Notes under the pieces: model-generated | What the model saw: the letters and a program-made list of their open reading frames with translations, nothing else | Told to the model about the DNA's origin: nothing | The model's database searches: none | Shown here: piece after piece, positions 520-57,744 of the stretch | Layout of the letters: the number at the start of each line of letters is the position of its first letter | Position numbering within the stretch: position 1 is the stretch's first letter | Position numbers and translations under genes: made by a program | IMG/VR virus record: IMGVR_UViG_2574180309_000001 | Location: 8,867-72,866 of that record | Length of the DNA: 64,000 nucleotides | Direction: 5' to 3' (one strand) | DNA from: a virus | Lineage: Duplodnaviria > Caudoviricetes

Positions 520-1356
520 TTGGAAAAAATTTCTGGAGTGGATAAGAATATGGAGAAGATAGGAAATTGTAGATTATGTGGGATGGAAGGAATCCTTCAA
601 GATAGTCATATAGTGCCAAAGTTTATAGGTAGATGGATAAGAAAAACATCAGAAGCGGGAGATTTAAGGATTCCCTATAATCCTAATAAACCTGAATATG
701 ACCTGTTTAGTACACACCTCCTTTGTAAGAAATGTGAAGGTATCTTCAGTAAGTTTGAAACTACTTTTGCAAATAAGATATTTTATAAATACCAAGATAA
801 TGATAGAAAATTCGAATATGATGATTGGTTAATGAATTTTGTTATCTCATTAAGCTGGCGTATTGGAACTTTATATTTTGTTAATAATTCTTTTGATGAA
901 ACAAATAGCAAGCATGTGTTATTAAATGAGGCATTGAACTTATGGGGAAGTTATTTACTTGGCGACAATACAAATTATGGTAGTTATAATCACCACTTAT
1001 ATTTTGTAGATGAAAGTAAGATTTCTGAAGATTTTCCACCCGGATATAAATATTATTTTAATAGGAGTGTTGATGGGCATGTAAGCTATTTACCTAATGG
1101 TGAAATGAATATTTATTGCATGTTACCGGGAATGTTGATTGTTTCAAATATTTCTCCTAAATCAATAAAGGGGTGGAGGGGAACAATTATAAATCGCTTT
1201 GGAACACTTCATAAATACAAACAATACACTCCCATTAATATTGCAAATTACATGGTAGATCGCACTATAATTTCAAGCTATTCCCTTCTAAACGGCATTA
1301 GTGATCAGCAAATAGAAAAAATTAAAGTAAAAGCTTCAAAGAAAAAGGAAAGCTAG
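520..1356 (+). CDS. Putative Zn-binding HNH-like nuclease (defence-island protein)
   Basis: N-terminal CRLC...SHIVP...LLCKKCE pattern typical of HNH-type domains; ATG at 550 is an alternative start. Confidence 0.55.
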   Translation: MEKISGVDKNMEKIGNCRLCGMEGILQDSHIVPKFIGRWIRKTSEAGDLRIPYNPNKPEYDLFSTHLLCKKCEGIFSKFETTFANKIFYKYQDNDRKFEYDDWLMNFVISLSWRIGTLYFVNNSFDETNSKHVLLNEALNLWGSYLLGDNTNYGSYNHHLYFVDESKISEDFPPGYKYYFNRSVDGHVSYLPNGEMNIYCMLPGMLIVSNISPKSIKGWRGTIINRFGTLHKYKQYTPINIANYMVDRTIISSYSLLNGISDQQIEKIKVKASKKKES

Positions 1357-1734
1357 CTACTATGTTATAACTAGATTTTATTTTGCTTCATGTAAGTGTA
1401 TTAATATATAACTAGGATAAAGCCGTAGCCCTCGATGAAAATAATGGTGAACTCACCGTTGGATATTAGAGAAATTCCCCTTTATTTCTCATTAAAAATT
1501 TCATTTATGTTGTACAAATATTGAATAATGTTTTTTATCAGATATATAGGGGGATATGGTTGTAATATGGGAAGAAGTGTGTTTCAAAAGGTTACTTAGG
1601 AAATGGATTTTATTAAGCTTTTTGATTTCAAATAGACGGGACCTCCTGAGTTTTTTAAAATCATTAAATGAAAATTGGATTGGGTATCGTGTATGATATA
1701 GTAAGAGCTATTTTTACATAAAGGGGGATATTTT

Positions 1735-2379
1735 ATGAAGTTGAAAAAGGAAGATTTTATGGAGAATCTAATTGAAGCATATGATTTTTTAATTACTTCT
1801 GTTGATGTATTTGATAAAAAGCAAAAATATCATGAGGCCAAAAGAATGGCAACAACTGTTAGGGTTCTTTTACATGATACAAATCAATCAACATCATTGT
1901 TAAAACATCTAGACCGAAAAGATATACATTTTTGTGACTCTTCATTTAAACATGACATGGTTCAAGAGGATGGATCTATTTGCATTATGCCACTGAGTAA
2001 ACCAATGTATTATGAAGAGGTTAGTATTGATGGAGTTACACTGATACCGTACTTGAATGAGAATGAAGAGAAATACATTCCATTTAAGGAATGGTGGGAG
2101 GAACAAGTAATATTAACAAATGGATATGGTAACACATTTACAAGAAAAAGTATTGTTACAGAGCTTGCAAATCGAGACGGAGGTGCTCATGTTGATAGCA
2201 AACTTCGTGATTCTTACTTCCATTTGACTAGAGGGATTTCTACAGGAGAGACGTTTCAAAGAAATGATGGGGATCCTGAGCCAATTCCTAATCCTCATTT
2301 GTTTACAATGAGACAAATTACTTATGAGGTAATAAAAACATTAGAAAAAGAATTTAATGAATTTATTGAACTGGAATAG
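1735..2379 (+). CDS. Hypothetical protein with HEPN-like RxxxxH motif
   Basis: 214 aa, RBS GGGGGA; ANRDGGAHVD contains R-x4-H. Confidence 0.5.
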   Translation: MKLKKEDFMENLIEAYDFLITSVDVFDKKQKYHEAKRMATTVRVLLHDTNQSTSLLKHLDRKDIHFCDSSFKHDMVQEDGSICIMPLSKPMYYEEVSIDGVTLIPYLNENEEKYIPFKEWWEEQVILTNGYGNTFTRKSIVTELANRDGGAHVDSKLRDSYFHLTRGISTGETFQRNDGDPEPIPNPHLFTMRQITYEVIKTLEKEFNEFIELE

Positions 2380-2489
2380 AATTTTAATAAAAATGTTAGT
2401 TTGAAATAAAGTTGTATAATTTATTATCAAGACAATGAATTAATCTATTTTTGAAAAAGCTGCAAACTTAATGTTTAATAAAATGTAAC

Positions 2490-2580
2490 AAAAAAACACT
2501 ATTCAAATGAATAGTGTTTTTTTGGACTTTTAGCAAGCTGCGATAGCTTGACACGCCGTCTTGGCTATACGTTATTTTAT
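2490..2580 (-). ncRNA. Candidate AbiF-associated antitoxin RNA
   Basis: Minus-strand sigma-A promoter TTGACC(2615-2610)-17bp-TATATT(2592-2587), GC-richer core with hairpin CAAGCT-ATCGC-AGCTTG, terminator 2490-2523; directly downstream of the Abi_2 gene. Confidence 0.65.
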
Positions 2581-2631
2581 GAAATAAATATAACATATAT
2601 ACGAAAAAAGGTCAATAAATTAATGTTTAAT

Positions 2632-3855
2632 TTATATCCAGTAAAAAATATTTGAGTTTCCCATTCTATCTAATAAAGAAATTGCTATATCATGCTTTTC
2701 TTCATAACGATATTTCCATAATAATAATTTAATTTCCGTTAAATCAATGTATTGTTTTAAGACTTTTAAAACATCATATAACTTAAGGACATATTTGTTT
2801 GCTCTCATAGGTGTAAGACCTAATTCGGAAATTAAATGCTGGTTAATTTTTAAGGAACTTGATGTTCTGAAACGATTAACCAATTCGAAATGTGCACACG
2901 TATTACGTAATTCTCTAATGATTTGCAAAGAATTTAAAAATTTCTCTTTGTCTTTTGGTTTTAGATTGAAATCCCTTAAAATAGCATCAAAAGTACGTTT
3001 CTTTAGTCCATAAAGTAAAAGAATTAAATCATTAAACATTAGGGTTTTAATAACAACCCAAAATGGAGGATTGTTATATTCATTTATAAATGGAAACCTT
3101 GTTTTGCATTCATCGATATAATTTAACCCATATATTCTTTCATCCTTAATGGTTATTGGTGTAGTAATAGATGTTCCTGATGAAGGGGCAAGCGAATGAA
3201 TATGTGCTACTAATGATGCTTGTTTCGAATTAAAAAAGGTGCACTTACCTTGGACTGTATTTATTGATGTAGATCCAAATCTGCCCGTAAATGTTCCTTC
3301 AAGTATAGTTTGCCCACGGGCGGGATTATAAGTCACATCTCCAGAAAAATCTCCACTAAAAATGCCTTCGAAATAAGCTGATTTTTTAAATAATTTATGT
3401 TTCTTAAAATGTTTAGTATATTCTTTAGGTCCATCTGTTCTTTTGGGAAGAGAATAACTAGTAAGTTCAATGTATTTATTATTATCACATAAAGTAGAGC
3501 AATGATTTTTACTAAAATGATAAGATATAGAAGTCTTTAATTTGTTTTCGAGTTCCGAAATTTTTTGGAATATTAAACTTGAAAGTTGATTATCAAGTTT
3601 ATAAAGACTTAAAAAATCATCAAAGAAAACATTAGTATAATATTTAGATGTACCTTTAGGGTCATCTAATAAAAGGGTTTCAAAACCATTTATTAAATTA
3701 AAATAATTTTTTTCATGAAGATGTAATTTTGCATTTTTTAAATCTTGAATAGCTAAATTCCGATCTCTTAATAAACGTAATTGATCCACGACAGCTTTAA
3801 ACTCTTTATCTGAAGGCATCCCTAAAAATCTCCCCTTATTTTTATGTAACCACAT
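2632..3855 (-). CDS. Abi_2 family (AbiF/AbiD-like) HEPN RNase toxin
   Basis: N-terminal QLRLLRDRNLAI...NYFNLINGF, ELENKLK, PPFWVVI, HEPN motif RNTCAH; likely start MPSDK at 3819. Confidence 0.85.
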   Translation of the reverse strand: MWLHKNKGRFLGMPSDKEFKAVVDQLRLLRDRNLAIQDLKNAKLHLHEKNYFNLINGFETLLLDDPKGTSKYYTNVFFDDFLSLYKLDNQLSSLIFQKISELENKLKTSISYHFSKNHCSTLCDNNKYIELTSYSLPKRTDGPKEYTKHFKKHKLFKKSAYFEGIFSGDFSGDVTYNPARGQTILEGTFTGRFGSTSINTVQGKCTFFNSKQASLVAHIHSLAPSSGTSITTPITIKDERIYGLNYIDECKTRFPFINEYNNPPFWVVIKTLMFNDLILLLYGLKKRTFDAILRDFNLKPKDKEKFLNSLQIIRELRNTCAHFELVNRFRTSSSLKINQHLISELGLTPMRANKYVLKLYDVLKVLKQYIDLTEIKLLLWKYRYEEKHDIAISLLDRMGNSNIFYWI

Positions 3856-4352
3856 AATAAAAAGTAATAGTTAGAGACAATTTTAGTGAAATAAATATGT
3901 TAGTAACCTTTTGAATAACATATTTTCCTATTTGGATAAAATTTTATGTATTATCAAAAAAGTGTCTTTTATTACTTAGTAGTTAATAATTTATATATAT
4001 ATATTATAATAAAATCGGAAGAAATTTAAGTATATTTTAAATAGACATAAATAACCGCACGATTAAGATATATAATTTTTTTGAAAAGTATATTTAAAAA
4101 TTTGAATGTTATTTTAGATGGTATGTATTTTCAATTAGGTCTAGAATATGATTTTTTAGTAATCAATATAGAATTCGACTTGCATATATAGTTGTAATCA
4201 CATTTAGTTTGGTGTTCAAAAGAAAGTGAATTTTATTGCTTATTCCTTTGAAATGTAAGATTTTATGAACTCATGTAATGAGTCCGATTACAATAATTTG
4301 GTCATATTGTGTTGAATAAAAATAAAAAAGAGAACCATAGCTCTTTTTTTTA

Positions 4353-5970: not shown

Positions 5971-7851
5971 ATGTATATATCTGATGTGAAAATTTTGAAT
6001 TACAGAAGCTTTTCAGAGTTTAATGTAAGCTTGAATGAAGGCTTATCTATAATCATTGGAGAAAATAATGCGGGGAAATCCAATTTTTTAGAGGCGTTGA
6101 GTCTTATCTTTAATAGTAATTACTCATTACGAAAAAGAATATTACAACAAGAGGATTTTTGGAGTGGACTCAATATTCAAGGGAACTGGCCAGAGATTAC
6201 AATTGAGGCAACTTTAAAAGGAATCGAAACAGAAAACGATCTTGCTATTACAAGTAGATGGCTAACAAGAAATCCAGGAGAGGCAAAACTTACCTACAAG
6301 TACAAACCAAAGGCAAATATTTCGGTTTCAGCTCCTCTTGATGCTACCCCTATTAGCAAAATTCAGCTTCCCCTTCATGAGTATGAGTGGATAATTTATG
6401 GTGGGGAGCGTGAAACATTAGACACCTTTGATTTTAATATGCTATCCAAGTTTGGAGTCGAGTATGTAGGGGCTCTTAGAGATGCAAATGCTGAATTAAA
6501 AAAGTCCTCTGGTCAATTACAGAGAATCCTAAAAAATTTCGATCTTGGAGAAGAGGAGCTTCATAAGATTTCAGGAAAAATTGATGAACTTAATGAGCAA
6601 ATTATGCAAGGTAGAGAAATTCAGAAGGTACAGAGTGATATCAATGAACATCTTCGAAAAATTACAGGGACTATGAGACAGCAAGTAAAAATCCAAATGG
6701 GAGAAAGTGACTATGACGCTTTATTAAAAGATTTAAAGGTCCTAATTGGTTCATATGAAGACAGAGTACATTCTGTTGATATGAATGGCCTTGGTTATAA
6801 TAATTTGCTGTATATTAGCCTTTTACTTACTCAATATACAGCCATTAAGGAAAAGCGAAATCAAAATCATGACTATGTGTTTCCACTTTTAATTGTTGAG
6901 GAACCGGAAGCCCATCTGCATAGTCATTTACAAAAGTTCTTAGCTAATTATTTCTTTAATCAGAAAGTCGTAGGCCAGGTTATTATGACAACCCATTCTT
7001 CACACGTTAGTTCGCATGCAGAACTGGATAATTTAGTAGTGTTTTATAAGGGGAACAATAGGACATTATCTAAACGTATTGGAACAATTTTTGATACCAA
7101 TAAAAAAGAGGAAAGAGATTATAAACGGTATTTAGAAAGATGGTTAGATGCTACCAAATCTGATATTTTTTTTGGTAGAAGGGTCTTATTAGTAGAAGGA
7201 ATTGCAGAACGTCTATTAATACCGAAATTTTTCTCTATGCTACAAAATCGATACGCGGGAGAAGATAAAACATTAGAAAGTGAAGGGATATCTATTATTT
7301 CAGTAGATGGTGTAGCATTTAGACCATTTTTACAGTTATTTGGATCAAAGGGATTAGATATGAAGTGTGCTGTTTTGACTGATAGTGATCCAGAATCTGT
7401 TCCAGTAATAGACATGCATGGGGATGAAGTGATTGGAAGTGACGATAAGGTTGTAAAAGAGGCAGTTTATCCTACGAAATTTGGTGATTTTCCAATCTGT
7501 TCAAGAACAACTGGTTTAATTAATGATTTTAGCACATCCTCTAATATTTATATATCTAGTAATCTTAAAACATTTGAATATGATTTGATGATGGAGAATA
7601 ATGCATCTTTCTTTCGTGAGTTAATTCAAACATACGATATTGGAACAAAAACAGAAAGGGAAAGAATTGTTACTTTGGACGGGCACGAATTTGCAAAAGA
7701 AGCCTATGAAGTTATTTCAAAGGAGAAGGGTCAATTCTCCCAGTTCATATTAGATGAATTGAATAAAGGGAAAGTTCTTCATATTCCAGCATATATCAAG
7801 CAGGTATTTAGTTTTCTTACGAATGAAGAGGAGGTAAGAAGTGATGGTTGA
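5971..7851 (+). CDS. gajA: Gabija GajA, OLD-family ABC ATPase + TOPRIM nuclease
   Basis: Walker A GENNAGKS, EEPEAHLH, TTHS, TOPRIM LLVEGIAE and DSD; overlaps a downstream UvrD helicase. Confidence 0.88.
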   Translation: MYISDVKILNYRSFSEFNVSLNEGLSIIIGENNAGKSNFLEALSLIFNSNYSLRKRILQQEDFWSGLNIQGNWPEITIEATLKGIETENDLAITSRWLTRNPGEAKLTYKYKPKANISVSAPLDATPISKIQLPLHEYEWIIYGGERETLDTFDFNMLSKFGVEYVGALRDANAELKKSSGQLQRILKNFDLGEEELHKISGKIDELNEQIMQGREIQKVQSDINEHLRKITGTMRQQVKIQMGESDYDALLKDLKVLIGSYEDRVHSVDMNGLGYNNLLYISLLLTQYTAIKEKRNQNHDYVFPLLIVEEPEAHLHSHLQKFLANYFFNQKVVGQVIMTTHSSHVSSHAELDNLVVFYKGNNRTLSKRIGTIFDTNKKEERDYKRYLERWLDATKSDIFFGRRVLLVEGIAERLLIPKFFSMLQNRYAGEDKTLESEGISIISVDGVAFRPFLQLFGSKGLDMKCAVLTDSDPESVPVIDMHGDEVIGSDDKVVKEAVYPTKFGDFPICSRTTGLINDFSTSSNIYISSNLKTFEYDLMMENNASFFRELIQTYDIGTKTERERIVTLDGHEFAKEAYEVISKEKGQFSQFILDELNKGKVLHIPAYIKQVFSFLTNEEEVRSDG

Positions 7852-9637
7852 TAATGATGATTTCCGGAGAAGTATAGCATGTGCTCCTCATACTGATTCA
7901 ATTACTGTACAAGCTGGACCTGGAAGTGGTAAAACGACGTTATTGATAGAGCGGTTGAAATATATAATTGAAAATCGCATAAATGCTTTGTCCGGGATTG
8001 CTTGTATTACTTATACCAATGCGGCTAAAGAAGAGATCATGATGCGACTACAAAATGAAGGAGTGCAGCTACCTAATGAGCTGTTTATAGGAACAATCCA
8101 TTCATTTTTATTGGAGCATGTGATTAAACCCTATTCACACTTGAAGCATAAGGAAGGAATACCATATAAACTTGCTTCTGTGGGCTTTGCTAGGGGATAT
8201 AAAGATTATATTGCAAATATGTTAGGACGCCCCCATTATCATATTAATGAGAGTATATTTAAAGCGTTCGAGAGCCTGGGCCGTGATGAAAAGGGAAATC
8301 CTTATTGCTATAGAAATAAGATTTCTTCTTCAGATGCATTGACATGGAAGAGCTTTATTAAAAATAAAGGATACATAGATCAACAAGATGTGATTTATCT
8401 TTCTTACCTTATTTTAAAAAAATATGGTCATATTCGAAATGCATTTAGTTCTCGCTTTAAATATATTCTTGTAGATGAGTATCAAGATGTTACTTATTAT
8501 CAAGAGAAGTTATTTTCTTTGCTAGAACATTCTTCGTTCTTTTGCGTCGGGGATACAAATCAATCAATTTATAGCTTTACAGGAGCAAAGCCAGAAATAT
8601 TTCAAGCAAAGTGGAACAATGAGAGTTACAGAAACTATATGTTAACCAACAATTTTCGGAGTACGCAACACATTGTCCAGTTTGCTAATTATAAAACAGA
8701 AATTGAGCAAACTGGAGCTGGTAAAAATGCTACAAGAAAGCAAAAAGTGATATTTATAAAAGATATTAAAGAGGCTTCAGAGGCTATTCAATTGTTTCAA
8801 AGTATTTGTACAGATATAGAATGTGAGGAACAAAAGAAGCCATTTATGATTCTAGCTAGACGGAATGATTATGTGAAAAATATAAATAGTCTTTTAAAAA
8901 AACAAGAAGTGGAAGTAAGCCCTTTTTTTAAGAAATTAGCAAAAGAGCATTATCGTCGCTTTCAAATTTTGCAAAATCTCATATTGGCTATCTCATATAA
9001 GCGGAGAAACGAATTTGACAAAGCTGTTGAAAGAATGAGTGAAGCCTTCAGCTATTTATTTTTTAATGAACACCCTAATTATATTGCATTAGTTGAAATT
9101 GGATATAGTATGTTTATGTGGAAGAAATTGCAGATCTTTACGCTTCAGTTTTTAGATAACCTGGTATTAACAGAAACATCGGTGGAAGAGCTGTTTGAAG
9201 TACTGAAAAAATTTCTGATGGAAGAATCAAAAAAACTGTATGGTAAATCTATAGGGAAAAAACTAAATATGCTTAATTACAAATGGAAGAATCAAGTTAA
9301 AGCATCAAAGAATACCATGTTATCACATCTCATAGAGCAAGTAGAGCTACAAGGGCACTTTTCTGAAAGTGAAGGCTCTATTTTAAACATTCATGATGCA
9401 AAAGGTCAAGAAGCGGAATGTGTATTGGTAATGGCTGAATACGAATCTCAGCTTAAGGAGTGGCTTGGAAAAAATGGAGAAATAGAAGAAGCACGTGTAG
9501 GTTATGTGGCGTTTTCTAGAGCTAGAAAGTTATTATGTGTATGGGCTCCTTCCATTCAAGAAAGTAACTACATGCATTTACAACAACATGTTCAATTTGT
9601 AGATAAGGTCTATGCCGCTAAAATGGAAAGTGTTTAA
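7841..9637 (+). CDS. gajB: Gabija GajB, UvrD-like helicase
   Basis: AGPGSGKT, TYTNAA, TIHSF, VDEYQD, GDTNQSIY, NFRS, HDAKGQE, YVAFSRA motifs. Confidence 0.88.
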   Translation: MMVDNDDFRRSIACAPHTDSITVQAGPGSGKTTLLIERLKYIIENRINALSGIACITYTNAAKEEIMMRLQNEGVQLPNELFIGTIHSFLLEHVIKPYSHLKHKEGIPYKLASVGFARGYKDYIANMLGRPHYHINESIFKAFESLGRDEKGNPYCYRNKISSSDALTWKSFIKNKGYIDQQDVIYLSYLILKKYGHIRNAFSSRFKYILVDEYQDVTYYQEKLFSLLEHSSFFCVGDTNQSIYSFTGAKPEIFQAKWNNESYRNYMLTNNFRSTQHIVQFANYKTEIEQTGAGKNATRKQKVIFIKDIKEASEAIQLFQSICTDIECEEQKKPFMILARRNDYVKNINSLLKKQEVEVSPFFKKLAKEHYRRFQILQNLILAISYKRRNEFDKAVERMSEAFSYLFFNEHPNYIALVEIGYSMFMWKKLQIFTLQFLDNLVLTETSVEELFEVLKKFLMEESKKLYGKSIGKKLNMLNYKWKNQVKASKNTMLSHLIEQVELQGHFSESEGSILNIHDAKGQEAECVLVMAEYESQLKEWLGKNGEIEEARVGYVAFSRARKLLCVWAPSIQESNYMHLQQHVQFVDKVYAAKMESV

Positions 9638-16174: not shown

Positions 16175-17059
16175 ATGGCGAAATACAGACACGTTCAAAC
16201 TTCATTTTGGTCAGATGCAAGAGTTTCAGAAGAGATGACGCCAGAGGATAAATACTTTTACCTCTATCTAATGACTAATGAGCATACAAACCAAATTGGA
16301 GTTTATCAGATAACTAGAAAACAAATGGCTTTTGAATTGGGTTACTCAATTGAAAGTGCAAAAGCTTTATTGGATCGCTTTATTAATCATCATGATTTGG
16401 TAGTTTATAACGAAGAAACTAGAGAACTTTGCATACTTAACTGGGGGAAATACAACCTTAACAAAGGTGGCAAGCCGATTGAGGATTGCATAAAGAAAGA
16501 GCTTAAAAGTATTAAAGATTTGTCGTTGGTACGACTGGTGCTAGAACGAACAGAAAACACCTCGTTAGTACAAAAAGTCAGTGTTTATGCGGGTCTTGAC
16601 GATACGTCACACGATACGTCCACGATACGGGGACAAAAAGAAAAAGAAAAAGAAAAAGAAAAAGAAAAAGAAAAAGAAAAAGAAAAAGAAAAAGAAAACA
16701 AGCCTCCTCGTCACAAGTTTGAAACTTGCGACACCAACGGGGCTAAGTATCTATTTGAAAAAATTAAGGGGAACAATCCTAAACAAAAAGAACCTAATTT
16801 CGATAATTGGGCAAATGAATTTAGATTAATGCGAGAACGCGATAACAGAGAACCGCAAGAGATTAAAGATGTTATTGATTGGTGCCAAGCTGATCTATTC
16901 TGGCAGGGGAACATTTTATCTCCTAAAAAGCTAAGGGAGAAGTTCGACCAACTAGCTATCCAAATGAATTCTAAAAAAGGAGCAAAAAACAATGCGGAGA
17001 GCGGTGGCAGCAATACCAACCGATATAGCCAAAAAGGTGAATATGACTATGGATTCTGA
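16175..17059 (+). CDS. Phage replication initiator / replisome organiser
   Basis: YRHVQTSFWSD...DKYFYLYLMTN N-terminus; lambda-O-like C-terminus FWQGNILSPKKLREKFDQL; precedes the helicase loader. Confidence 0.85.
   Translation: MAKYRHVQTSFWSDARVSEEMTPEDKYFYLYLMTNEHTNQIGVYQITRKQMAFELGYSIESAKALLDRFINHHDLVVYNEETRELCILNWGKYNLNKGGKPIEDCIKKELKSIKDLSLVRLVLERTENTSLVQKVSVYAGLDDTSHDTSTIRGQKEKEKEKEKEKEKEKEKEKENKPPRHKFETCDTNGAKYLFEKIKGNNPKQKEPNFDNWANEFRLMRERDNREPQEIKDVIDWCQADLFWQGNILSPKKLREKFDQLAIQMNSKKGAKNNAESGGSNTNRYSQKGEYDYGF
16598..16698. repeat. Intragenic lytic origin: three ACGATACG iterons + (GAAAAA)n tract
   Basis: ACGATACG x3 at 16598-16630, then ~10 perfect GAAAAA units. Confidence 0.6.
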
Positions 17060-17801
17060 TGTGTGTGATACGCACGGTATGAATAAGATGAAGTTCGTTG
17101 GACAAGTTGTTTGTCCGCGTTGCTTCCTTGAAAACGAGAGTAAGAAGCTTCAGCAACATGAGCAAGCGAAATACGATGCGGATAAAGCGAATGAGAAGAA
17201 GTTTATGTTCCATCAACAAAGTATGATTGCCGATAGCAACATTAAGAAAGCTAGTTTCGATAACTATCAACCTACTAGCGAGGAAGGAGCAAAGAACCTT
17301 GAACTTGTAAAGGTCATCGCTACTTATTATCTCAATGGAAAAGTGTTTAACACGATTATGGCAGGAAATTGCGGGGCAGGGAAAACGCATCTTGCTTATG
17401 CTATCGCGGATCAACTTGCTGGAGCAGGGAAGTCAGTTGTCTTCGTCACAGTTGGGGAATTATTACGAAAGATTAAAAGTACGTTCAGTAAAGATTCAAC
17501 ACTAACTGAGGATTCAATCATTCGAGGCTTAGTAAGAGCAGAAGTGTTAATAGTCGATGATTTAGGAGCGGAGTTAGGCGCATTAGATGCCAATACAAAA
17601 GCAACAAACTTCATTAATAGGGTGTTATTCGATGTTTTTGATGGAAGGCAAGGTAAATCTACTATTTTTACGACAAACCTTACAGGAGAGCGTTTAGAGG
17701 GTGCATATGATGAAAGAATTGTATCGCGTATCTTTAATAACTTTAGAACGATTGTTTTCAAAGATACAAAGGATTACAGGAGAAAAGCATTGCCATTCTA
17801 A
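16992..17801 (+). CDS. DnaC/IstB-like helicase loader ATPase
   Basis: GNCGAGKT, LIVDDLGAE, TTNL, RIVSRI. Confidence 0.9.
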   Translation: MRRAVAAIPTDIAKKVNMTMDSDVCDTHGMNKMKFVGQVVCPRCFLENESKKLQQHEQAKYDADKANEKKFMFHQQSMIADSNIKKASFDNYQPTSEEGAKNLELVKVIATYYLNGKVFNTIMAGNCGAGKTHLAYAIADQLAGAGKSVVFVTVGELLRKIKSTFSKDSTLTEDSIIRGLVRAEVLIVDDLGAELGALDANTKATNFINRVLFDVFDGRQGKSTIFTTNLTGERLEGAYDERIVSRIFNNFRTIVFKDTKDYRRKALPF

Positions 17802-24025: not shown

Positions 24026-24041
24026 TTTTGAGGTGATTTGG

Positions 24042-24617
24042 ATGGCTATCGTTGGTTATGCAAGGGTGAGTACAAAAGATCAAAACTTAGATGCACAAAT
24101 TGAAAGGTTAACAGAATATGGATGTGAAAAGATATATTCTGAAAAGTACAGTGGAGCTAATAGTGATCGGGAAGAATTGCAAAAGGCATTAGAGTATATG
24201 AGAGAAGGGGATAAATTTGTTGTTTGTAAAATAGATCGTTTAGCTAGATCGATATTTGATTTGCATAAGATTGTAAATCAATTAGCTGATCGAGGAATAG
24301 CGGTAGTATTTCTTAAAGAACAAATTGATTTCTCTACACCAGCAGGTAAATTGATGTTTACTATGTTAGGGGCTATTGCTGAGTTTGAAAGGGATTTAAT
24401 TAACGAAAGAACAGCTGAAGGAAGAGAAAGAGCTAAAGCAATGGGCAAACATATGGGACGTAAGGGGCAGGATGAAAAACAGGTGAAGCAGGCTATGAAC
24501 TTATTCTTTAATAGGAAAGAGAATGGTTTGAGTGTAAATGATATTTCAAAAATGACGGGAGTTCCGCGTTCTACTATTTATGCTAAGGCGAAAGAATTAA
24601 AAGAGGAGGAATTATGA
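24042..24617 (+). CDS. Serine resolvase/invertase
   Basis: GYARVSTKDQ, GD..VV.KIDRLARS, EFERDLI.ERT.EG, C-terminal HTH. Confidence 0.92.
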   Translation: MAIVGYARVSTKDQNLDAQIERLTEYGCEKIYSEKYSGANSDREELQKALEYMREGDKFVVCKIDRLARSIFDLHKIVNQLADRGIAVVFLKEQIDFSTPAGKLMFTMLGAIAEFERDLINERTAEGRERAKAMGKHMGRKGQDEKQVKQAMNLFFNRKENGLSVNDISKMTGVPRSTIYAKAKELKEEEL

Positions 24618-48512: not shown

Positions 48513-49679
48513 ATGGGACTCATCAAAGATTGGCTCCATAAGCAAAATTTAAAGAATCAACTTATAGAGGTATTTAGGAAAGCAGGTTTATATGTGGACC
48601 ATCAAACGAGAGGTGGTAAAGTACCCATTTATCCAAAGATACATTCCATTTCTTCCACACAAGAAAATGTTCGATATGTATTTACCATTCCGAATGGTTT
48701 GGATCCGAAGAATATTGAAAAGAAATGGTTTTGCTTTCAACAAATATTAGGACGTAATGTAGCGATTGAAGGTGATATTAAGCGATTTGTTCTTAATGTA
48801 TTCCATTCAGATGCTGGACTACAAACATACAAGTACAGTTATAAGAAATGGCAGCCATTATTAAAACAACATCGTCTTCCTGTTGTGGTAGGACGTGACC
48901 AATATGGAAACATGATTGCGTATGACATGGTTGATTCAAATACACCTCATTTACTCATAGCAGGAGAGACAGGTAGCGGTAAAAGTAGTATGGTACGCGT
49001 TGTTCTGTCCACACTCATTCAACACATGTCTCCTGATAAGTTGCATTTGTACCTGGGCGACTTGAAGAATTCTGAGTTTCATTTCTTGAGAAGAGTAAAG
49101 CACGTAAAAGAGGTTTGCATGGAAGAAATCGAAATGAAGATTATGCTACAGAAAGTGTGGAAGGAAATACGCGAACGTAGAAAACTGATGGAAGAGTATG
49201 AAGTGGATCATATAGATGAATACAACAAATTAAATCCCAATAATGAAAAACCGTATATCTTACTTGCTATTGATGAAGTAGCAATGCTTCAGGATGAAAA
49301 GGAATGTATGTCTACAGTTGAAAAAATATCGGCAGTCGGTAGGGCGCTAGGAGTCTTCCTTATGCTTAGCATGCAACGTCCCGACGCAAAAGTATTAGAC
49401 GGAAAGCTAAAGTTGAATATGACCGTGAGAATGGGCTTTAAATGTGATAGTACAATTAACAGTAATATCATGGGTACACCTGGTTCAGAAAACTTGGAGC
49501 AATCGGGCCAAATGATATTAAAATTGAACGGATTAAAGAAAGTGCAAGCTCCTTATTTAGAATTAAGTAAAGCGAGACAAATTGTTGAACCTTATCGCAT
49601 TCCGAAAGAGGATATGAAGTCCCAGATTCCTCCGCAAGAAGAAAATCAATTGTTTGGGGTGTTAGATTATGAAGAGTAG
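48513..49679 (+). CDS. FtsK/SpoIIIE-family ATPase
   Basis: PHLLIAGETGSGKS, DLK, IDE, GRALGV, QRPD. Confidence 0.9.
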   Translation: MGLIKDWLHKQNLKNQLIEVFRKAGLYVDHQTRGGKVPIYPKIHSISSTQENVRYVFTIPNGLDPKNIEKKWFCFQQILGRNVAIEGDIKRFVLNVFHSDAGLQTYKYSYKKWQPLLKQHRLPVVVGRDQYGNMIAYDMVDSNTPHLLIAGETGSGKSSMVRVVLSTLIQHMSPDKLHLYLGDLKNSEFHFLRRVKHVKEVCMEEIEMKIMLQKVWKEIRERRKLMEEYEVDHIDEYNKLNPNNEKPYILLAIDEVAMLQDEKECMSTVEKISAVGRALGVFLMLSMQRPDAKVLDGKLKLNMTVRMGFKCDSTINSNIMGTPGSENLEQSGQMILKLNGLKKVQAPYLELSKARQIVEPYRIPKEDMKSQIPPQEENQLFGVLDYEE

Positions 49680-50277
49680 AGACAAAGCGATACTGAGCGA
49701 TTTGAAACATTTCAGATGTATGTCTAGGGATGACATAATAGATTTACATTTTCAAGGAGTGAAAAACGCAGTTACTTGCTGTAATACGGTGATGAAACGA
49801 TTAAGAAGAGATGGCCATGTCGATGCAAATATCTCACAGCAGCCATTTATATATTTTCCTCAACCCAGCACACTTCGCAAAACTAGCCAAAAAATTCCCC
49901 ACTTTCTCGGCATTGTAGACGTATACAAACAGCTTATCCATTATGAAAAACCGAAACTATTCAAAGTCGAACCGAAATACGGTAAAGAATTTATGGAACC
50001 AGATGCATTTACAATTTGGCGTAGATCTCCATTCTTTATTGAAGTACAGAAGTCAGTTTACAGCAAGAAGATTATGCAAGATAAGATAAACAGGTATGAA
50101 TTATACTTCCACAGCCAGGAATGGCATAATGAATCGTGGCAACCCAAAGGATCTAAATTCTTTCCATCAATCCTCATTATTACCGATAAACAGTACGATA
50201 TTAATTCTTCTAATTTACGTATCTTTCAAGCTTCTTCAATTAGCAATTTTATGGGTAGTCTTGCTGTAAAAATTTAA
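49669..50277 (+). CDS. Replication-relaxation (Replic_Relax) family protein
   Basis: RDKAIL N-terminal wHTH, HFL, PDA...FFIEVQ...KINRY. Confidence 0.8.
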   Translation: MKSRDKAILSDLKHFRCMSRDDIIDLHFQGVKNAVTCCNTVMKRLRRDGHVDANISQQPFIYFPQPSTLRKTSQKIPHFLGIVDVYKQLIHYEKPKLFKVEPKYGKEFMEPDAFTIWRRSPFFIEVQKSVYSKKIMQDKINRYELYFHSQEWHNESWQPKGSKFFPSILIITDKQYDINSSNLRIFQASSISNFMGSLAVKI

Positions 50278-54694: not shown

Positions 54695-55516
54695 TTACAC
54701 ACCAACCTTCATTTTTTCAAACATATCAATACGAGATAATAATTCATCACTAATTGTTTCGTATAGTTCAATTACATTCATATCATGTCTATCTTTTTCA
54801 GTAATACCATTCACATCAAATCGTTTAATACGTTCCATTTGAGGGACAATGTTTTTGAATAGGTTTTCTTCACCGAAAATTTCACGAGCGTTCTCCATGA
54901 TATATTCGTCAACCTTACCGTTGTTTTTTAATAGGACAGGAAGAACGCCAACTACTTCAATATCAAGATCATATTGTTCCTTTAACTTAATAAGCTCATT
55001 AATATAGTTCTCAGCACCAGTAAGAGAACGTTCTTGTGTTTGCAGAGCAATTAGAACATAATCAGAAGCTACAACTGCATTTTTTGTAACTTCTAGTGAC
55101 ATAGGAGGTACGTCGATAAATATGTAGTCGTATTTATGTTTTATCTTTTCAAGTAATCCTTTAAAGTAATGATCTTCTTCAGCTTCCGAAGAACAATTTT
55201 TATAAAGGAATTTTGCGAAGTCCTGAAAATCAACATAAGAAGGAAGTAAATGTAAGTTCTCCATAATTTCCACTTCTAAGCCGTCTAGGTTTCCCTCTTG
55301 TATACCTTTCATTAATGTTTTTTCAACAGTAACGATTTCATCAGGGTTAAGGATTGATTTTGTTAACATTAAAGACTTTGTTGCGTTACTTTGTGGGTCA
55401 AGATCAACAAGTAATGTACGCTTGCCCTTTTTAGCAAATTCATAAGAGTTCAATACAGCATTTGTGGTTTTACCGACTCCACCTTTGTAATTACCTACCG
55501 TAATTGTAATAGCCAT
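54695..55516 (-). CDS. parA: ParA/Soj-family partition ATPase
   Basis: KGGVGKTT, DLDPQSNAT, YDYIFIDVPP. Confidence 0.92.
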   Translation of the reverse strand: MAITITVGNYKGGVGKTTNAVLNSYEFAKKGKRTLLVDLDPQSNATKSLMLTKSILNPDEIVTVEKTLMKGIQEGNLDGLEVEIMENLHLLPSYVDFQDFAKFLYKNCSSEAEEDHYFKGLLEKIKHKYDYIFIDVPPMSLEVTKNAVVASDYVLIALQTQERSLTGAENYINELIKLKEQYDLDIEVVGVLPVLLKNNGKVDEYIMENAREIFGEENLFKNIVPQMERIKRFDVNGITEKDRHDMNVIELYETISDELLSRIDMFEKMKVGV

Positions 55517-55544
55517 TTTTAACACTCCAGTTATAGTTTTTGAA

Positions 55545-55890
55545 ATTTCCCTATATCCCTTTATAGAAATAGGGAAAAATAGAAATAGGGAAATAGGGAT
55601 ATTTCTAACTATAGAAATAGGGATATTTCTATATCTTTAAAGAAATTATAACAATGAAGTACGGTATATGCAATAGAATCATAGAGTTAGTAATTAATAA
55701 CAAAAACGTTGGTATCAAAAGATTCTTTTGATGTATGAAGTAGAAAGAGTTAAGAAATAAATATGTAAACTTATAGAGAAGTTAGTAGGTAAAAAAATAA
55801 CGAAAATAGGGAAATATAGATATAGGGAAAAGTGGAAATATCCCTATATCTATAAGTGGAAATAGGGAAATAGGGAAATAGGGATATTAT
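55545..55890. repeat. parS-like AAATAGGGA repeats (also at 54270-54320)
   Basis: More than ten direct/inverted ATAGGGAAA/ATAGGGATAT copies flanking the par operon. Confidence 0.75.
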
Positions 55891-56052
55891 TCGGAAAGTG
55901 TGCAAATTCACTGTTTACAAAGGATAGTGCTTGTTGTAACGTAGTAAACAACAAGCACCATTCTACAAAACAAAACATAATTTGATATTTTACATAAACG
56001 AAGATCATGAAGATTAATAGAGCAAAATTAAAAACAATTGAATATGAACATA

Positions 56053-56230
56053 AAACAAAAAGCCACTCCCATATGCTAACGGCTACCAACCTTTAGCGGG
56101 AATGACTCAGCTCTAGTAATTGCTACCAACACTTACTAGACATAACCTGTAACCATGCAGGAATTCAGTTTAAGTAGTGTACCACCACTATCCTTAAACA
56201 ATTATGCCTTTCGACTAGGCTTATTTGATA
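56053..56230 (-). ncRNA. Antisense copy-control-like RNA
   Basis: Promoter TTGAAT(56264-56259)-17-TAAAAT(56241-56236); stem-loops with GUUGGUAGC loops; U-tract terminator. Confidence 0.7.
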
Positions 56231-56310
56231 TACCCATTTTATCTATGATTCGGCTAAAATTCAACTAGTAAATGCTAGAATTGTATTTTTTGCAGTCAAA
56301 AGATATATAT

Positions 56311-56380
56311 AGGGCATCTCTAAGCTAGAAGTCTTGTGAATGTACAAGCTATTTAGGAGTTGGAGATGCCTTTTTGTTTT
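56311..56380 (+). terminator. Attenuator-like terminator
   Basis: GGCATCTCTAA...TTGGAGATGCC followed by TTTTTGTTTT. Confidence 0.65.
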
Positions 56381-57099
56381 GGTTCGCGTGGAATTGCCTG
56401 ATACCACGTAAATAAAAACTGATAAGCCGTAATTCCGTGCTGCTATACATATAGGAGGAACGTGTTACGTGCGTGGCTAGCTGTTGGTCGTGCAGGGGGT
56501 ACAGAGTATACGCCTACAAAAACAGCACCCCTCATTGGAATCCTGTTCTTCTGGTGAGGGTGGGCGAGAACTTGCCCAGGGACGATTCTCTAAAAGGTTC
56601 GGGTGGTTATCGTTAGCATCAAGGTGCTAGGGAGTACATTCAGTTTGTCGTGTAGGGACGATATTATAAGGACAAGCCATAGAAAAAGGATGTATGCGGT
56701 GAAAATCGCTAAGTGAGCAGGGTCTATACATACGGATACCTTATAAGTGACCGCATGGCAAAAACTAAGACGCTTATCCATCTATTTTGATCGATTACTT
56801 TTTTTGTGATCTTTCAAAGTAGGGGATAAATCTGCCTTCCAGCCGTGTTCCATAATCGTTCCCACATGATAAAAACCCTCAAGACCTTCAGTCAATACTA
56901 TTTACTAAGAAAATATAAAGAATGTAAGATAGTATTAGATTTTAAAGGGTTATTAATTAAAAAAAGAGGAAGATAGGAGGAAATGTTAATTTATTTGGAG
57001 GATAGGAGTATTAATTATTAGGGTATTTTTTAGAATTTAGTTTTACACTTTAGGTATAGTACATGAAATTTTATTATTTTATAGAATTGAGGTATAAAG

Positions 57100-57744
57100 T
57101 TGAGTGGATTAATGGAAATTTTAAAGCAATATGCACCAGTGTTAACGATTATAAGTATAGGATTAACTATTTATATCTATTTAAAAAATAAGAAGAAAAA
57201 AGAATTATCTTATCAGGAGGTCTCTTCAACACCGTTAATAAACAGTTTACATAATAAAGTGAAGATTCATGTTGATAATCAAGAAATACAGGAAAAATTA
57301 TATTTGGTTGTTCTTAAAATAGTTAATAGTGGTACTGAACCAATTAAGAAAGATGAATTTGAAAAAGATATATCAATTAAATTTTTAGAAACTTATAAAG
57401 GTGTTTCTAAAGTATTCGATGCTGAAGTTTCTTCGATGAACCCATTAGATATTGAATGTACTTTATATAATAATGAATATGGAAAAGAGTTAGGATTTAA
57501 GCCGTTATTGTTAAATCCAGGAGAAAATTTTACAATAACACTTTTGGTATCTAAATATGATAAAATTTTAATAAGAGGACGAATAGTCGGAGGTAAGATT
57601 ATTCAATCTGTCAAAAAGGATAAAAAATGGTTTTTTGCCCAGCCATTTATCGTTTCTGTGTTGTCGGCGTTGTTTGCAACGTTGATTATGATAGTGATTC
57701 CGATGTTATATGCATTGGTTAAAATTTATTTTAGTAAGTCTTAA
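57100..57744 (+). CDS. Membrane protein (N- and C-terminal TM around a beta-rich domain)
   Basis: Hydrophobic termini; NSG.EPI, LLNPGE motifs. Confidence 0.65.
   Translation: MSGLMEILKQYAPVLTIISIGLTIYIYLKNKKKKELSYQEVSSTPLINSLHNKVKIHVDNQEIQEKLYLVVLKIVNSGTEPIKKDEFEKDISIKFLETYKGVSKVFDAEVSSMNPLDIECTLYNNEYGKELGFKPLLLNPGENFTITLLVSKYDKILIRGRIVGGKIIQSVKKDKKWFFAQPFIVSVLSALFATLIMIVIPMLYALVKIYFSKS

Follow-up and report, generated by a model that had tools for sequence, protein, structure and literature searches.

A candidate gene-free replicon with a putatively antisense-attenuated structured RNA in a Bacillus cereus-group phage-plasmid

Described RNA-controlled and Rep-free replicons

In ColE1, which replicates without a dedicated initiator, the antisense RNA I (found on ColE1 by the Rfam model RNAI, RF00106, at 73.8 bits) carries the 9-mer GUUGGUAGC in its loops 2 and 3, and control is exerted through refolding of the pre-primer. 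In the pT181 and inc18 plasmids (pIP501, pAMbeta1, pSM19035), a countertranscript is complementary to the leader and a terminator lies just ahead of the rep gene. A third arrangement is that of pLS20 oriV, presented in the accessible text of two papers as a class E theta replicon of ~1.1 kb with no typical replication gene, located by partition genes (PMC8557374, PMC9743546). Here, a stretch of 64,000 nucleotides (the window, bases 8,867-72,866 of a 72,866-bp virus record) was analyzed, which has the gene set of a Bacillus cereus-group phage-plasmid of siphovirus type. The analysis is centered on a module without long open reading frames (ORFs) that adjoins its parA gene. We estimate at roughly 0.55 the probability that this module (55,980-56,900) is the lysogenic replicon of the phage-plasmid, i.e., a gene-free theta replicon sister to ori1030 and relying on host factors only, in which an initiator or pre-primer RNA acting in cis would be attenuated by an antisense RNA, copy number being set in this way. 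Neither the literature searched nor Rfam yielded a prior description of the module; one may exist in subscription papers or supplements, most of all in the 1992 paper on the pHT1030 replicon.

Several traits of the module recall ColE1. The 9-mer GUUGGUAGC stands in two loops of the countertranscript predicted in the window, as in loops 2 and 3 of RNA I. An antisense RNA of three stem-loops that opposes the 5' portion of a long sense RNA, and a folded sense RNA of ~0.5 kb leading toward a presumed start site, are also predicted in the window as in ColE1, and the window candidate would, like ColE1, do without a dedicated initiator. However, RF00106 gave no match in the window at the gathering score or at E up to 10, a profile built from the control part of the module misses ColE1, control in the window would rely on an intrinsic terminator instead of pre-primer refolding, and the host is Gram-positive. 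Because the RNAI model misses the window and the countertranscript loops of relatives have other letters, the shared GUUGGUAGC loop is read as convergence on a good kissing loop and not as homology, and the likeness to ColE1 is functional only. A first-pass annotation of this DNA had pointed to ColE1 RNA I-like loops; the motif is indeed found in two loops, whereas the RNAI model and the mode of control, which would be by termination as in pT181 and inc18 plasmids, set the module apart from ColE1.

The resemblance to the pT181 and inc18 plasmids lies in a countertranscript complementary to the leader, in a terminator placed just ahead of the controlled region, and in a mutually exclusive upstream pairing that is covered by the countertranscript. 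In contrast to these plasmids, the attenuator of the window precedes an ORF-free structured RNA and not a rep gene. With pLS20 oriV, the module has in common a length of ~1.1 kb, the lack of a typical rep gene, the position beside partition genes and a GC-rich island; that of pLS20 (NC_015148.1, ~64965-65365) has a GC content of 0.51-0.56 and lies beside alp7AR in AT-rich surroundings. Comparison of pLS20 oriV with the window gave nothing by nhmmer at E <= 10, a best blastn E of 0.19 and no match to the control-part profile; no countertranscript or attenuator is known for pLS20 oriV, where none was sought. The single-strand origins of rolling-circle plasmids differ from the module in that no rolling-circle Rep was matched among the scanned ORFs of the carriers.

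The structured core and the control part

On the + strand, the module consists of a candidate sense promoter, a leader, a terminator hairpin followed by a U-run, a CGTGG..CCACG hairpin, a core of ~420 nt and a short conserved 3' flank (coordinates in Table 1). The first-pass annotation had noticed, at the place where a rep gene would be expected, some 500 nt of GC-richer, hairpin-forming DNA devoid of long ORFs. This description holds, as the GC content of 56300-56800 reaches 0.42-0.485 vs 0.22-0.35 in the flanks, with no ORF longer than 63 amino acids (aa) inside 56,260-56,900 and none longer than 79 aa in 55,900-57,000. The same stretch has a GC skew of +0.13 to +0.29. A G-rich + strand favors the formation of RNA-DNA hybrids.

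Full-length copies of the core were aligned, the 77 copies being reduced to 65 clusters at 96% identity and completed by a Planococcus copy (66 rows), while truncated segments and eight chance hits were left out. The mean column identity of this alignment is 83% across genera. RNAalifold yielded -271.0 kcal/mol for the + strand vs -223.5 for the - strand, and the + strand structure includes 1,635 G-U cells vs 111 A-C cells; therefore, the + strand is the folded one. The structure comprises 175 pairs between 56374 and 56904, entry hairpins included, and 96.6% of its 11,248 cells can pair. Changes on both sides of a pair were observed for 57/175 pairs, vs 15.6 +/- 2.8 in shuffled alignments (none of 500 reached 57). 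When partners were slid by 1-3 columns, 14-30 two-sided pairs were counted, a control that is somewhat flattering, given that this very alignment had served to derive the structure; the comparisons with shuffles and between strands are free of that weakness. The two-sided changes mostly fall in the local helices 4-7, 11, 13-15 and 22. The long-range closing helices 3, 9, 10, 12, 16 and 17 show mainly one-sided variation and are hence less certain. The fold of the window's own core follows the same strand preference, with -167.1 kcal/mol (z -3.73, equaled by 0/100 shuffles) on the + strand vs -130.3 kcal/mol (z -0.62, 26/100) on the - strand.

At the 5' side of the core, the CGTGG..CCACG entry hairpin is kept in all aligned copies and the 47-nt one is missing from 9/66. 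Toward its 3' side, the 22-pair terminal hairpin (helix 22) is paired at 98.1%, with eight invariant pairs and seven changed on both sides; by inference only, it is a candidate initiation or primosome-loading site. A promoter-like site facing back into the core (TTGACT-18-TATCAT) is kept in B. cereus-group copies and not in those of Peribacillus, Paenibacillus and Planococcus; a second antisense transcript is possible. The whole window contains no match at the gathering score to any Rfam 15 family, ROOL, GOLLD, RNAI and the plasmid copy-control RNAs included. With the threshold relaxed to E 10, only chance-level snoRNA- or miRNA-type matches were obtained in 55500-57200, none of them inside 56330-56690. 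Finally, the 56.4-56.9 kb stretch is non-coding. This is illustrated by the absence of 3-base periodicity of substitutions in the core copies (p 0.09 and 0.76), by indels that are multiples of three in 44/307 cases only (263/307 are not), and by a longest open stretch that falls to 43 aa (the minimum among the 66 copies).

Upstream of the core, the first-pass annotation had proposed a near-consensus minus-strand sigma-A promoter driving an RNA of ~175 nt with repeated loops. The promoter is present, scores 9/12 and is conserved. Five promoter-like sites were found in 55500-57200 vs 8.2 +/- 3.0 in shuffles, so the TTGAAT-17-TAAAAT match alone is not above chance; the evidence for it comes from alignments, in which both hexamers are conserved in Bacillus, Peribacillus and Planococcus plasmids and in plasmid BTB_15p (family form TTGAAW ... 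TAWAAT). The RNA expected from this promoter (~176 nt) folds at -56.8 kcal/mol (z -3.40, with 1/200 shuffles as good), and its last hairpin and U-run would constitute its intrinsic terminator. It carries GUUGGUAGC in two loops, corresponding to GCTACCAAC on the + strand at 56082 and 56122, and GGUGGUAC in one, corresponding to GTACCACC at 56179, in agreement with the loops first noticed. According to the alignments, the leader stems are conserved between plasmids and the hairpin loops are variable. Moreover, in 3/3 strains with two co-resident members of the family, the loop letters differ between the two members. Such differences are what an antisense incompatibility determinant predicts, three pairs being few.

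The attenuator-like terminator on the + strand was also recovered. Its hairpin (56311-56372) is equaled in 1/200 shuffles and was omitted by a simple terminator scan because its stem is long and imperfect. The stretch aligned to 56300-56392 was then compared in 15 diverged representatives: a strong hairpin (-23.3 to -47.6 kcal/mol) with differing stem letters is present in 15/15, and the U-run follows it in 13/15 (L013 and L022 are without). A segment of the countertranscript-covered leader able to pair with the terminator 5' arm was found in 15/15 as well (RNAduplex, -13.1 to -26.6 kcal/mol). The ACAGGACTTC/GAAGTCTTGT anti-terminator duplex is perfect in two small plasmids (L006 and L008) and is also kept in BTB_15p. 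The ATGCCTT at 56204, suggested as a competing element from the outset, duplicates the ATGCCTT of the terminator 3' arm (56366) and thereby provides a second possible competitor for the 5' arm. Hence, the promoter, the terminator and the competing pairing of the antisense/attenuator logic are conserved across diverged copies, and attenuation by the countertranscript would follow by analogy with the established mechanism of the pT181 and inc18 plasmids. As for the sense transcript, a clear promoter (TTGATT-17-TAAAAT or TAAGAT) is seen in the aligned small plasmids.

According to the mechanism that we propose, the sense transcript would start near 56,000-56,040, and a constitutive countertranscript would pair with its leader through loop-loop contacts. 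By covering the anti-terminator, the countertranscript would free the 5' arm, allowing the terminator to form, so that most transcripts would stop there. The transcripts that escape would extend into a G-rich RNA of ~420 nt, whose conserved multi-helix fold ends in the long hairpin. This read-through RNA would act in cis to start DNA synthesis, most likely as an R-loop on the template, either by being processed to yield a primer or by opening the duplex to the host primosome. Because the countertranscript would gate read-through, it would also set copy number and incompatibility, and the copies would be segregated by ParA with the adjoining repeat arrays.

Carriers, ori1030 and alternative explanations

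The element is real and widespread. A query of 1,101 nt matched 112 plasmid records by blastn (Bacillus 109, Peribacillus 1, Pseudalkalibacillus 1, Planococcus 1), at least 80% of it being covered in 76 of them, and no annotated feature lies beneath the match among the plasmid records listed. A pattern of the terminal hairpin matched 77 contigs of IMG/VR and 25 of genomes; by a motif check, 17 of the genome matches are true, and the other eight are chance matches, in unrelated taxa and without the upstream core motifs. Among the 104 species genomes scored in the B. cereus-group family of one carrier, 28 contain a match at E <= 1e-5, near full length in 21, partial in one and restricted to a decayed chromosomal piece of ~110 nt in six. 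In the phage collection, only one weak record was obtained (Bacillus phage C30-2, 39% covered). Carrier records range from 6.9 to 260 kb and their downstream genes vary; the carriers are not one phage lineage. Full-length copies also occur on 5.3-Mb contigs (G057:C1:1446610 and G034:C1:5226237). Several B. cereus-group chromosomes (G010 and G068, near 1.12-1.18 Mb) have, within an intergenic gap of 850 nt, a decayed mid-core copy of ~118 nt (profile positions 267-384; L126 3063-3180, L127 3077-3192). In this copy, paired G residues are changed to A, and no Rfam match was found there.

The smallest carriers are the most informative with regard to replication. In four complete plasmids of 6.9-7.6 kb (L006-L009), to which MOB-suite assigns no replicon type and in which no Rep is annotated, the module lies in the sole long gene-free gap. 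A high-coverage Paenibacillus contig of 4,632 bp (L030) has a 77-bp terminal repeat and is therefore considered circular at ~4,555 bp; it contains, besides the module, only a 189-aa protein with winged helix-turn-helix (wHTH) and ribbon-helix-helix (RHH)-like parts, an Xre-type helix-turn-helix protein and a serine resolvase. Apart from the module, these plasmids of 4.6-7.6 kb, which are without detectable Rep domain, have no large conserved non-coding block. Scanned ORFs of L006, L008 and L030 gave no Rep or DnaD-like match, those of the window and of the small plasmids gave none to Rep_1, Rep_2 or Rep_trans, and no protein family is common to all carriers. Cumulative GC skew was computed as well for G000, NZ_CP090422.1 and seven small plasmids. 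Its minima fall at the module edge only in L006-L008, and it was not used because it is dominated by gene direction.

The second line of evidence is provided by BTB_15p, a 15,189-bp plasmid of B. thuringiensis Bt407 with an ORF-free stretch at 1141-2470. The control-part profile (window 56036-56400 and relatives) matches BTB_15p 1386-1716 over the whole model (E 3.8e-55), and four relatives too; by blastn, the window and BTB_15p are 92% identical over 51 nt and 71% over 187 nt. The position of the sense promoter, the countertranscript promoter, the leader hairpins, the anti-terminator/terminator and the 3' flank are homologous in both. Both have an ORF-free region of ~1 kb with a core structured on the + strand, and both types occur on small plasmids without annotated Rep. 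In the BTB-type core, the alifold energy is -135.4 on the + strand vs -110.1 on the - strand (z -2.3 vs +0.1), with 76 G-U vs 7 A-C (four sequences, about three independent). The BTB-type region was found in 101 plasmid records, including some of 7.4-14 kb. Control part and core can be combined differently: pLM5 (L124) is a mosaic of a BTB-type control part and the core type of the window (W-type), in L122 an unrelated upstream region precedes a BTB-type core, and L123 apparently has a third core type. Two differences separate the window from the ori1030 type: its ~420-nt core has no detectable sequence likeness to that of BTB_15p, and it lies on a 73-kb phage-plasmid beside ParA.

BalI cuts BTB_15p at 1270 and 4142, a distance of 2,872 bp, and HpaI cuts it at 3912, 2,642 bp from 1270. 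We take these sizes to match those of the ori1030 fragments of pHT1030, reportedly a 2.9-kb BalI and a 2.6-kb HpaI-BalI fragment in the work of Arantes and Lereclus from 1991 and of Lereclus and Arantes from 1992. The latter is said to have delimited a minimal ori1030 replicon of ~1 kb needing no plasmid protein. From the fragment sizes, BTB_15p is probably pHT1030 with ori1030. The 1270-4142 fragment includes a 135-aa gene of PBECR2 fold (3061-3465), which, we presume, might be the stability locus of the pHT vectors. ori1030 is the replicon of the vectors pHT304, pHT315, pHT370 and pBS0E. In the accessible text of the papers concerned, ori1030 alone is the Bacillus origin of the pBS0E-type shuttle vectors (PMC5678133, PMC10101014), and Lereclus and Arantes (1992) is cited as the pHT1030 replicon paper (PMC13001229). 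Taken with the small plasmids without a detected Rep domain, the control-part homology to BTB_15p supports, at the level of sequence, the Rep-less replicon that the first-pass annotation had imagined.

Several observations weigh against the module being a replicon of this kind. No + strand promoter passed the promoter scan of 55500-57200, the sense promoter of the window being weak. Contigs from four RNA-library runs (four studies) cover the region from 55400, 55907, 56229 or 56325 to ~56912 and attest presence only, as they are assembled and may include DNA carry-over; they were not used as transcription evidence. The W-type core has no nhmmer match in BTB_15p at E <= 10 (core-alignment profile), and a forced alignment of the two cores shows only a few short motifs alike. 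Because the cores are unalike, core function is transferred from BTB_15p by architecture and not by homology. Moreover, the identity of BTB_15p with pHT1030 and the ORF-free nature of minimal ori1030 are assumptions. DnaA boxes were also sought: words matching TTATCCACA with at most two mismatches number 256 in the window vs 260 +/- 15 expected, and because they are not enriched, the TTATCC arms of the terminal hairpin are not taken as evidence for DnaA. To these points must be added the candidate initiators and the ambiguity of the folded strand, which underlie the following alternatives.

In the first of them, which we consider unlikely, the module is an origin with RNA copy control that still needs an initiator in trans, namely the phage DnaD-like organizer with the DnaC-like loader in the window, and a DnaD_N/HTH_36-like, RepA_N-like or wHTH+RHH protein elsewhere. 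The organizer (phrog_1701, 5e-85) and the IstB-like loader are both encoded in the window. Immediately downstream of the module, L007 carries a small DnaD_N/HTH_36-like gene (1940-2434), and similar genes are present in L009 (5351-5809) and L011. A RepA_N/DnaD-like ORF stands just upstream of the ORF-free stretch in BTB_15p (101-1141; phrog_7882, 8e-12), and its equivalent in pLM5 is annotated 'replication initiator protein A'. The wHTH+RHH protein adjoins the module in five small plasmids (L030 and four others), where it could be an unrecognised initiator. These genes leave room for help in trans from a protein. On the other hand, none of these families is common to all carriers, L006, L008 and L030 are without Rep or DnaD-like match in their scanned ORFs, and the BalI fragment that matches the reported size of the ori1030 fragment leaves out the RepA-like ORF. 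Furthermore, the early replication genes of phages are expected to be silent in lysogeny.

The 189-aa protein (L030/L131 1192-1761) has an N-terminal winged HTH and a disordered middle (75-134) in its AlphaFold model (pLDDT 68), and its C-terminal end reads as RHH-like from the model and a motif. Its family counts 191 proteins and is frequent in Priestia, Peribacillus and Paenibacillus on contigs of 7-7.7 kb. As an obligate partner of the module it was rejected, since it adjoins the W-type core at 1/28 genome loci; the family may instead act in the stability or copy control of small cryptic plasmids.

It is less likely that the core is a non-coding RNA that functions outside replication (regulatory, anti-defence, or of the 'ornate' ROOL/GOLLD sort), the dose of which would be set by the antisense attenuator while the replicon lies elsewhere. 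The strong strand-specific covariation of a large RNA would suit such a role, as would the movement of the module between unrelated backbones, and the phages and plasmids of Bacillota commonly carry large structured RNAs of unknown role. Nevertheless, a circular plasmid of 4.56 kb holds little besides the module, the small carriers are without any typed replicon, the module always adjoins partition or stability genes, and a region that serves as an origin in vectors is homologous to its control part. The core also belongs to no Rfam family at the thresholds given above.

Still more doubtful is a reading in which the pairings belong to single-stranded DNA: the displaced or unwound + strand would fold as a primosome-assembly site or a single-strand-origin-like site, transcription only opening the duplex. 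RNA and displaced + strand have identical letters, and the covariation fits both. The terminal hairpin, with its 22 pairs and AT-rich loop, also resembles signals of the ssi/sso type. Against this, the heavy G-T wobble (the G-U cells of the alignment) suits RNA better, the carriers scanned gave no rolling-circle Rep, and an attenuator placed immediately upstream is understandable when it is the transcript that matters. Finally, a decayed rep gene at 56.4-56.9 kb with incidental hairpins is highly improbable: although the location is where inc18/pT181-type attenuators precede rep and stop-free stretches reach 103 aa in some copies, the lack of substitution periodicity, the indels mostly out of frame, the 43-aa minimum and the column identity kept across genera with compensatory changes reveal no coding signature and a strong covariation.

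Phage-plasmid setting and implications

The features of the module and of its surroundings are collected in Table 1.

Table 1. Features of the module and of other parts of the window (window positions).
Feature	Position	Strand	Basis or remark
Candidate sense-promoter region	55982..56040	+	alignments; conserved -35-like TTGATA at 55982-55987, no good -10
Predicted countertranscript, ~176 nt, three main stem-loops	56229 to ~56054	-	ends inferred from promoter and U-run
Anti-terminator partner(s) in leader, within the countertranscript-covered stretch	56156..56236	+	RNAduplex -18.7 kcal/mol with terminator 5' arm
Countertranscript promoter TTGAAT-17-TAAAAT	56236..56264	-	score 9/12
Attenuator, long imperfect intrinsic terminator hairpin, U-run to ~56381	56311..56381	+	-28.9 kcal/mol, z -3.13
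Two entry hairpins	56377..56472	+	CGTGG..CCACG at 56387-56408; 47-nt hairpin at 56426-56472
Core RNA, ~420 nt, predicted	56474..56894	+	closing helices 56474-56478/56890-56894 and 56594-56613/56866-56888
Terminal 22-pair hairpin (helix 22), AT-rich loop	56774..56829	+	arms TTATCC.. / ..GGGGATAA nearly invariant
Promoter-like TTGACT-18-TATCAT facing back into core	56866..56895	-	overlaps 3' strands of closing helices
parA, type Ib ParA ATPase, partition gene adjoining the module	54695..55525	-	Pfam AAA_31 2e-39, CbiA, ParA
Two clusters of 8-bp-periodic ATAGGGAA repeats around AT-rich spacer	55538-55650 and 55799-55887		repeat search
Perfect 11-bp inverted repeat GTGCTTGTTGT..ACAACAAGCAC, 10-nt spacer	55927..55958		between par repeats and module
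AimR	10674-11876		gene of window
Repressor/antirepressor pair and Sak annealing protein			encoded in window
DnaD-like replisome organizer	16175-17059		phrog_1701, 5e-85
IstB/DnaC-like loader	16992-17801		ORF scan
RecU			encoded in window
Small serine resolvase	24033-24617		ORF scan
FtsK/SpoIIIE and Replic_Relax	48513-50277		adjacent genes

The partition system recognized earlier beside the module was confirmed by the domain matches of parA, whose homologue carries a ParA annotation in pALH1 and NZ_CP090422.1, and by the parS-like ATAGGGAA repeat clusters. The repeat search grouped the ATAGGGAA repeats into a direct family (D1, eight copies) and inverted pairs (I1-I12); from their position upstream of parA, the clusters are the probable centromere/operator of the par system. 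The inverted repeat that follows, kept in the phage-plasmid group (column conservation >=0.9 in 55 sequences), could be an operator or a terminator.

The 72.9-kb record has 52 ORFs of 110 aa or more, and the ORF scan covered 34 of them. The 18 others lie in 25710-47478, a block that partly aligns with packaging, head and tail genes of NZ_CP090422.1. The record was scanned directly because NZ_CP090422.1 aligns with only 28,687 of its 72,866 bases at megablast level. Among the 34 scanned ORFs, no match to a plasmid Rep family or a tyrosine integrase was obtained, so that the initial statement that no Rep or integrase is recognisable stands for these proteins, with the qualifier that a DnaD-like organizer, a DnaC-like loader and a serine resolvase are encoded.

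In the accessible text of PMC8026635, pALH1 and its close relatives are putative plasmid prophages with 'ParA-Ib plus RHH' partition, and ParA and phage replication genes are listed for the plasmid prophages of the B. cereus group without a plasmid replicon being named. The FtsK/SpoIIIE and Replic_Relax pair of the window is absent from pALH1, though pALH1 has the same non-coding module. The window further encodes an Abi_2 protein (2632-3855) and an OLD-like AAA_15 and TOPRIM protein (5971-7851) followed by a UvrD-type helicase (7841-9637), the latter two resembling a Gabija-like defence pair. A possible peptide-modification cluster lies outside the window (G000:C1:3266-8297); this cargo encodes a radical SAM enzyme, an MFS transporter, a luciferase-like monooxygenase and a GST-N/PqqD-like protein.

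The module thus provides a concrete replicon candidate for the plasmid prophages of the B. cereus group, being found in 28 of the 104 species genomes. With a confidence a little short of even, we propose that Bacillales harbor a family of gene-free, RNA-only replicons in which an antisense-attenuated structured RNA of ~0.4-0.6 kb would replace Rep, as a pre-primer or as a recruiter of the host primosome. Control part and core would be exchangeable cassettes (W-type, ori1030-type and the mosaic pLM5), the W-type being the long-sought lysogenic replicon of many B. cereus-group phage-plasmids. Regarding the Rep-independent theta replicons of Gram-positive bacteria (pHT1030, pLS20), initiation is 'very little known' according to the accessible text of PMC8557374. 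These replicons have stood for 30 years, and the covarying RNA and its attenuator now supply defined helices, loops and promoters to mutate. Besides, the ~420-nt core is a large structured RNA outside any Rfam family. Since ori1030 vectors are widely used, a copy number that is probably set by the countertranscript, together with loop variants that coexist, would offer compatible and tunable origins for Bacillus.

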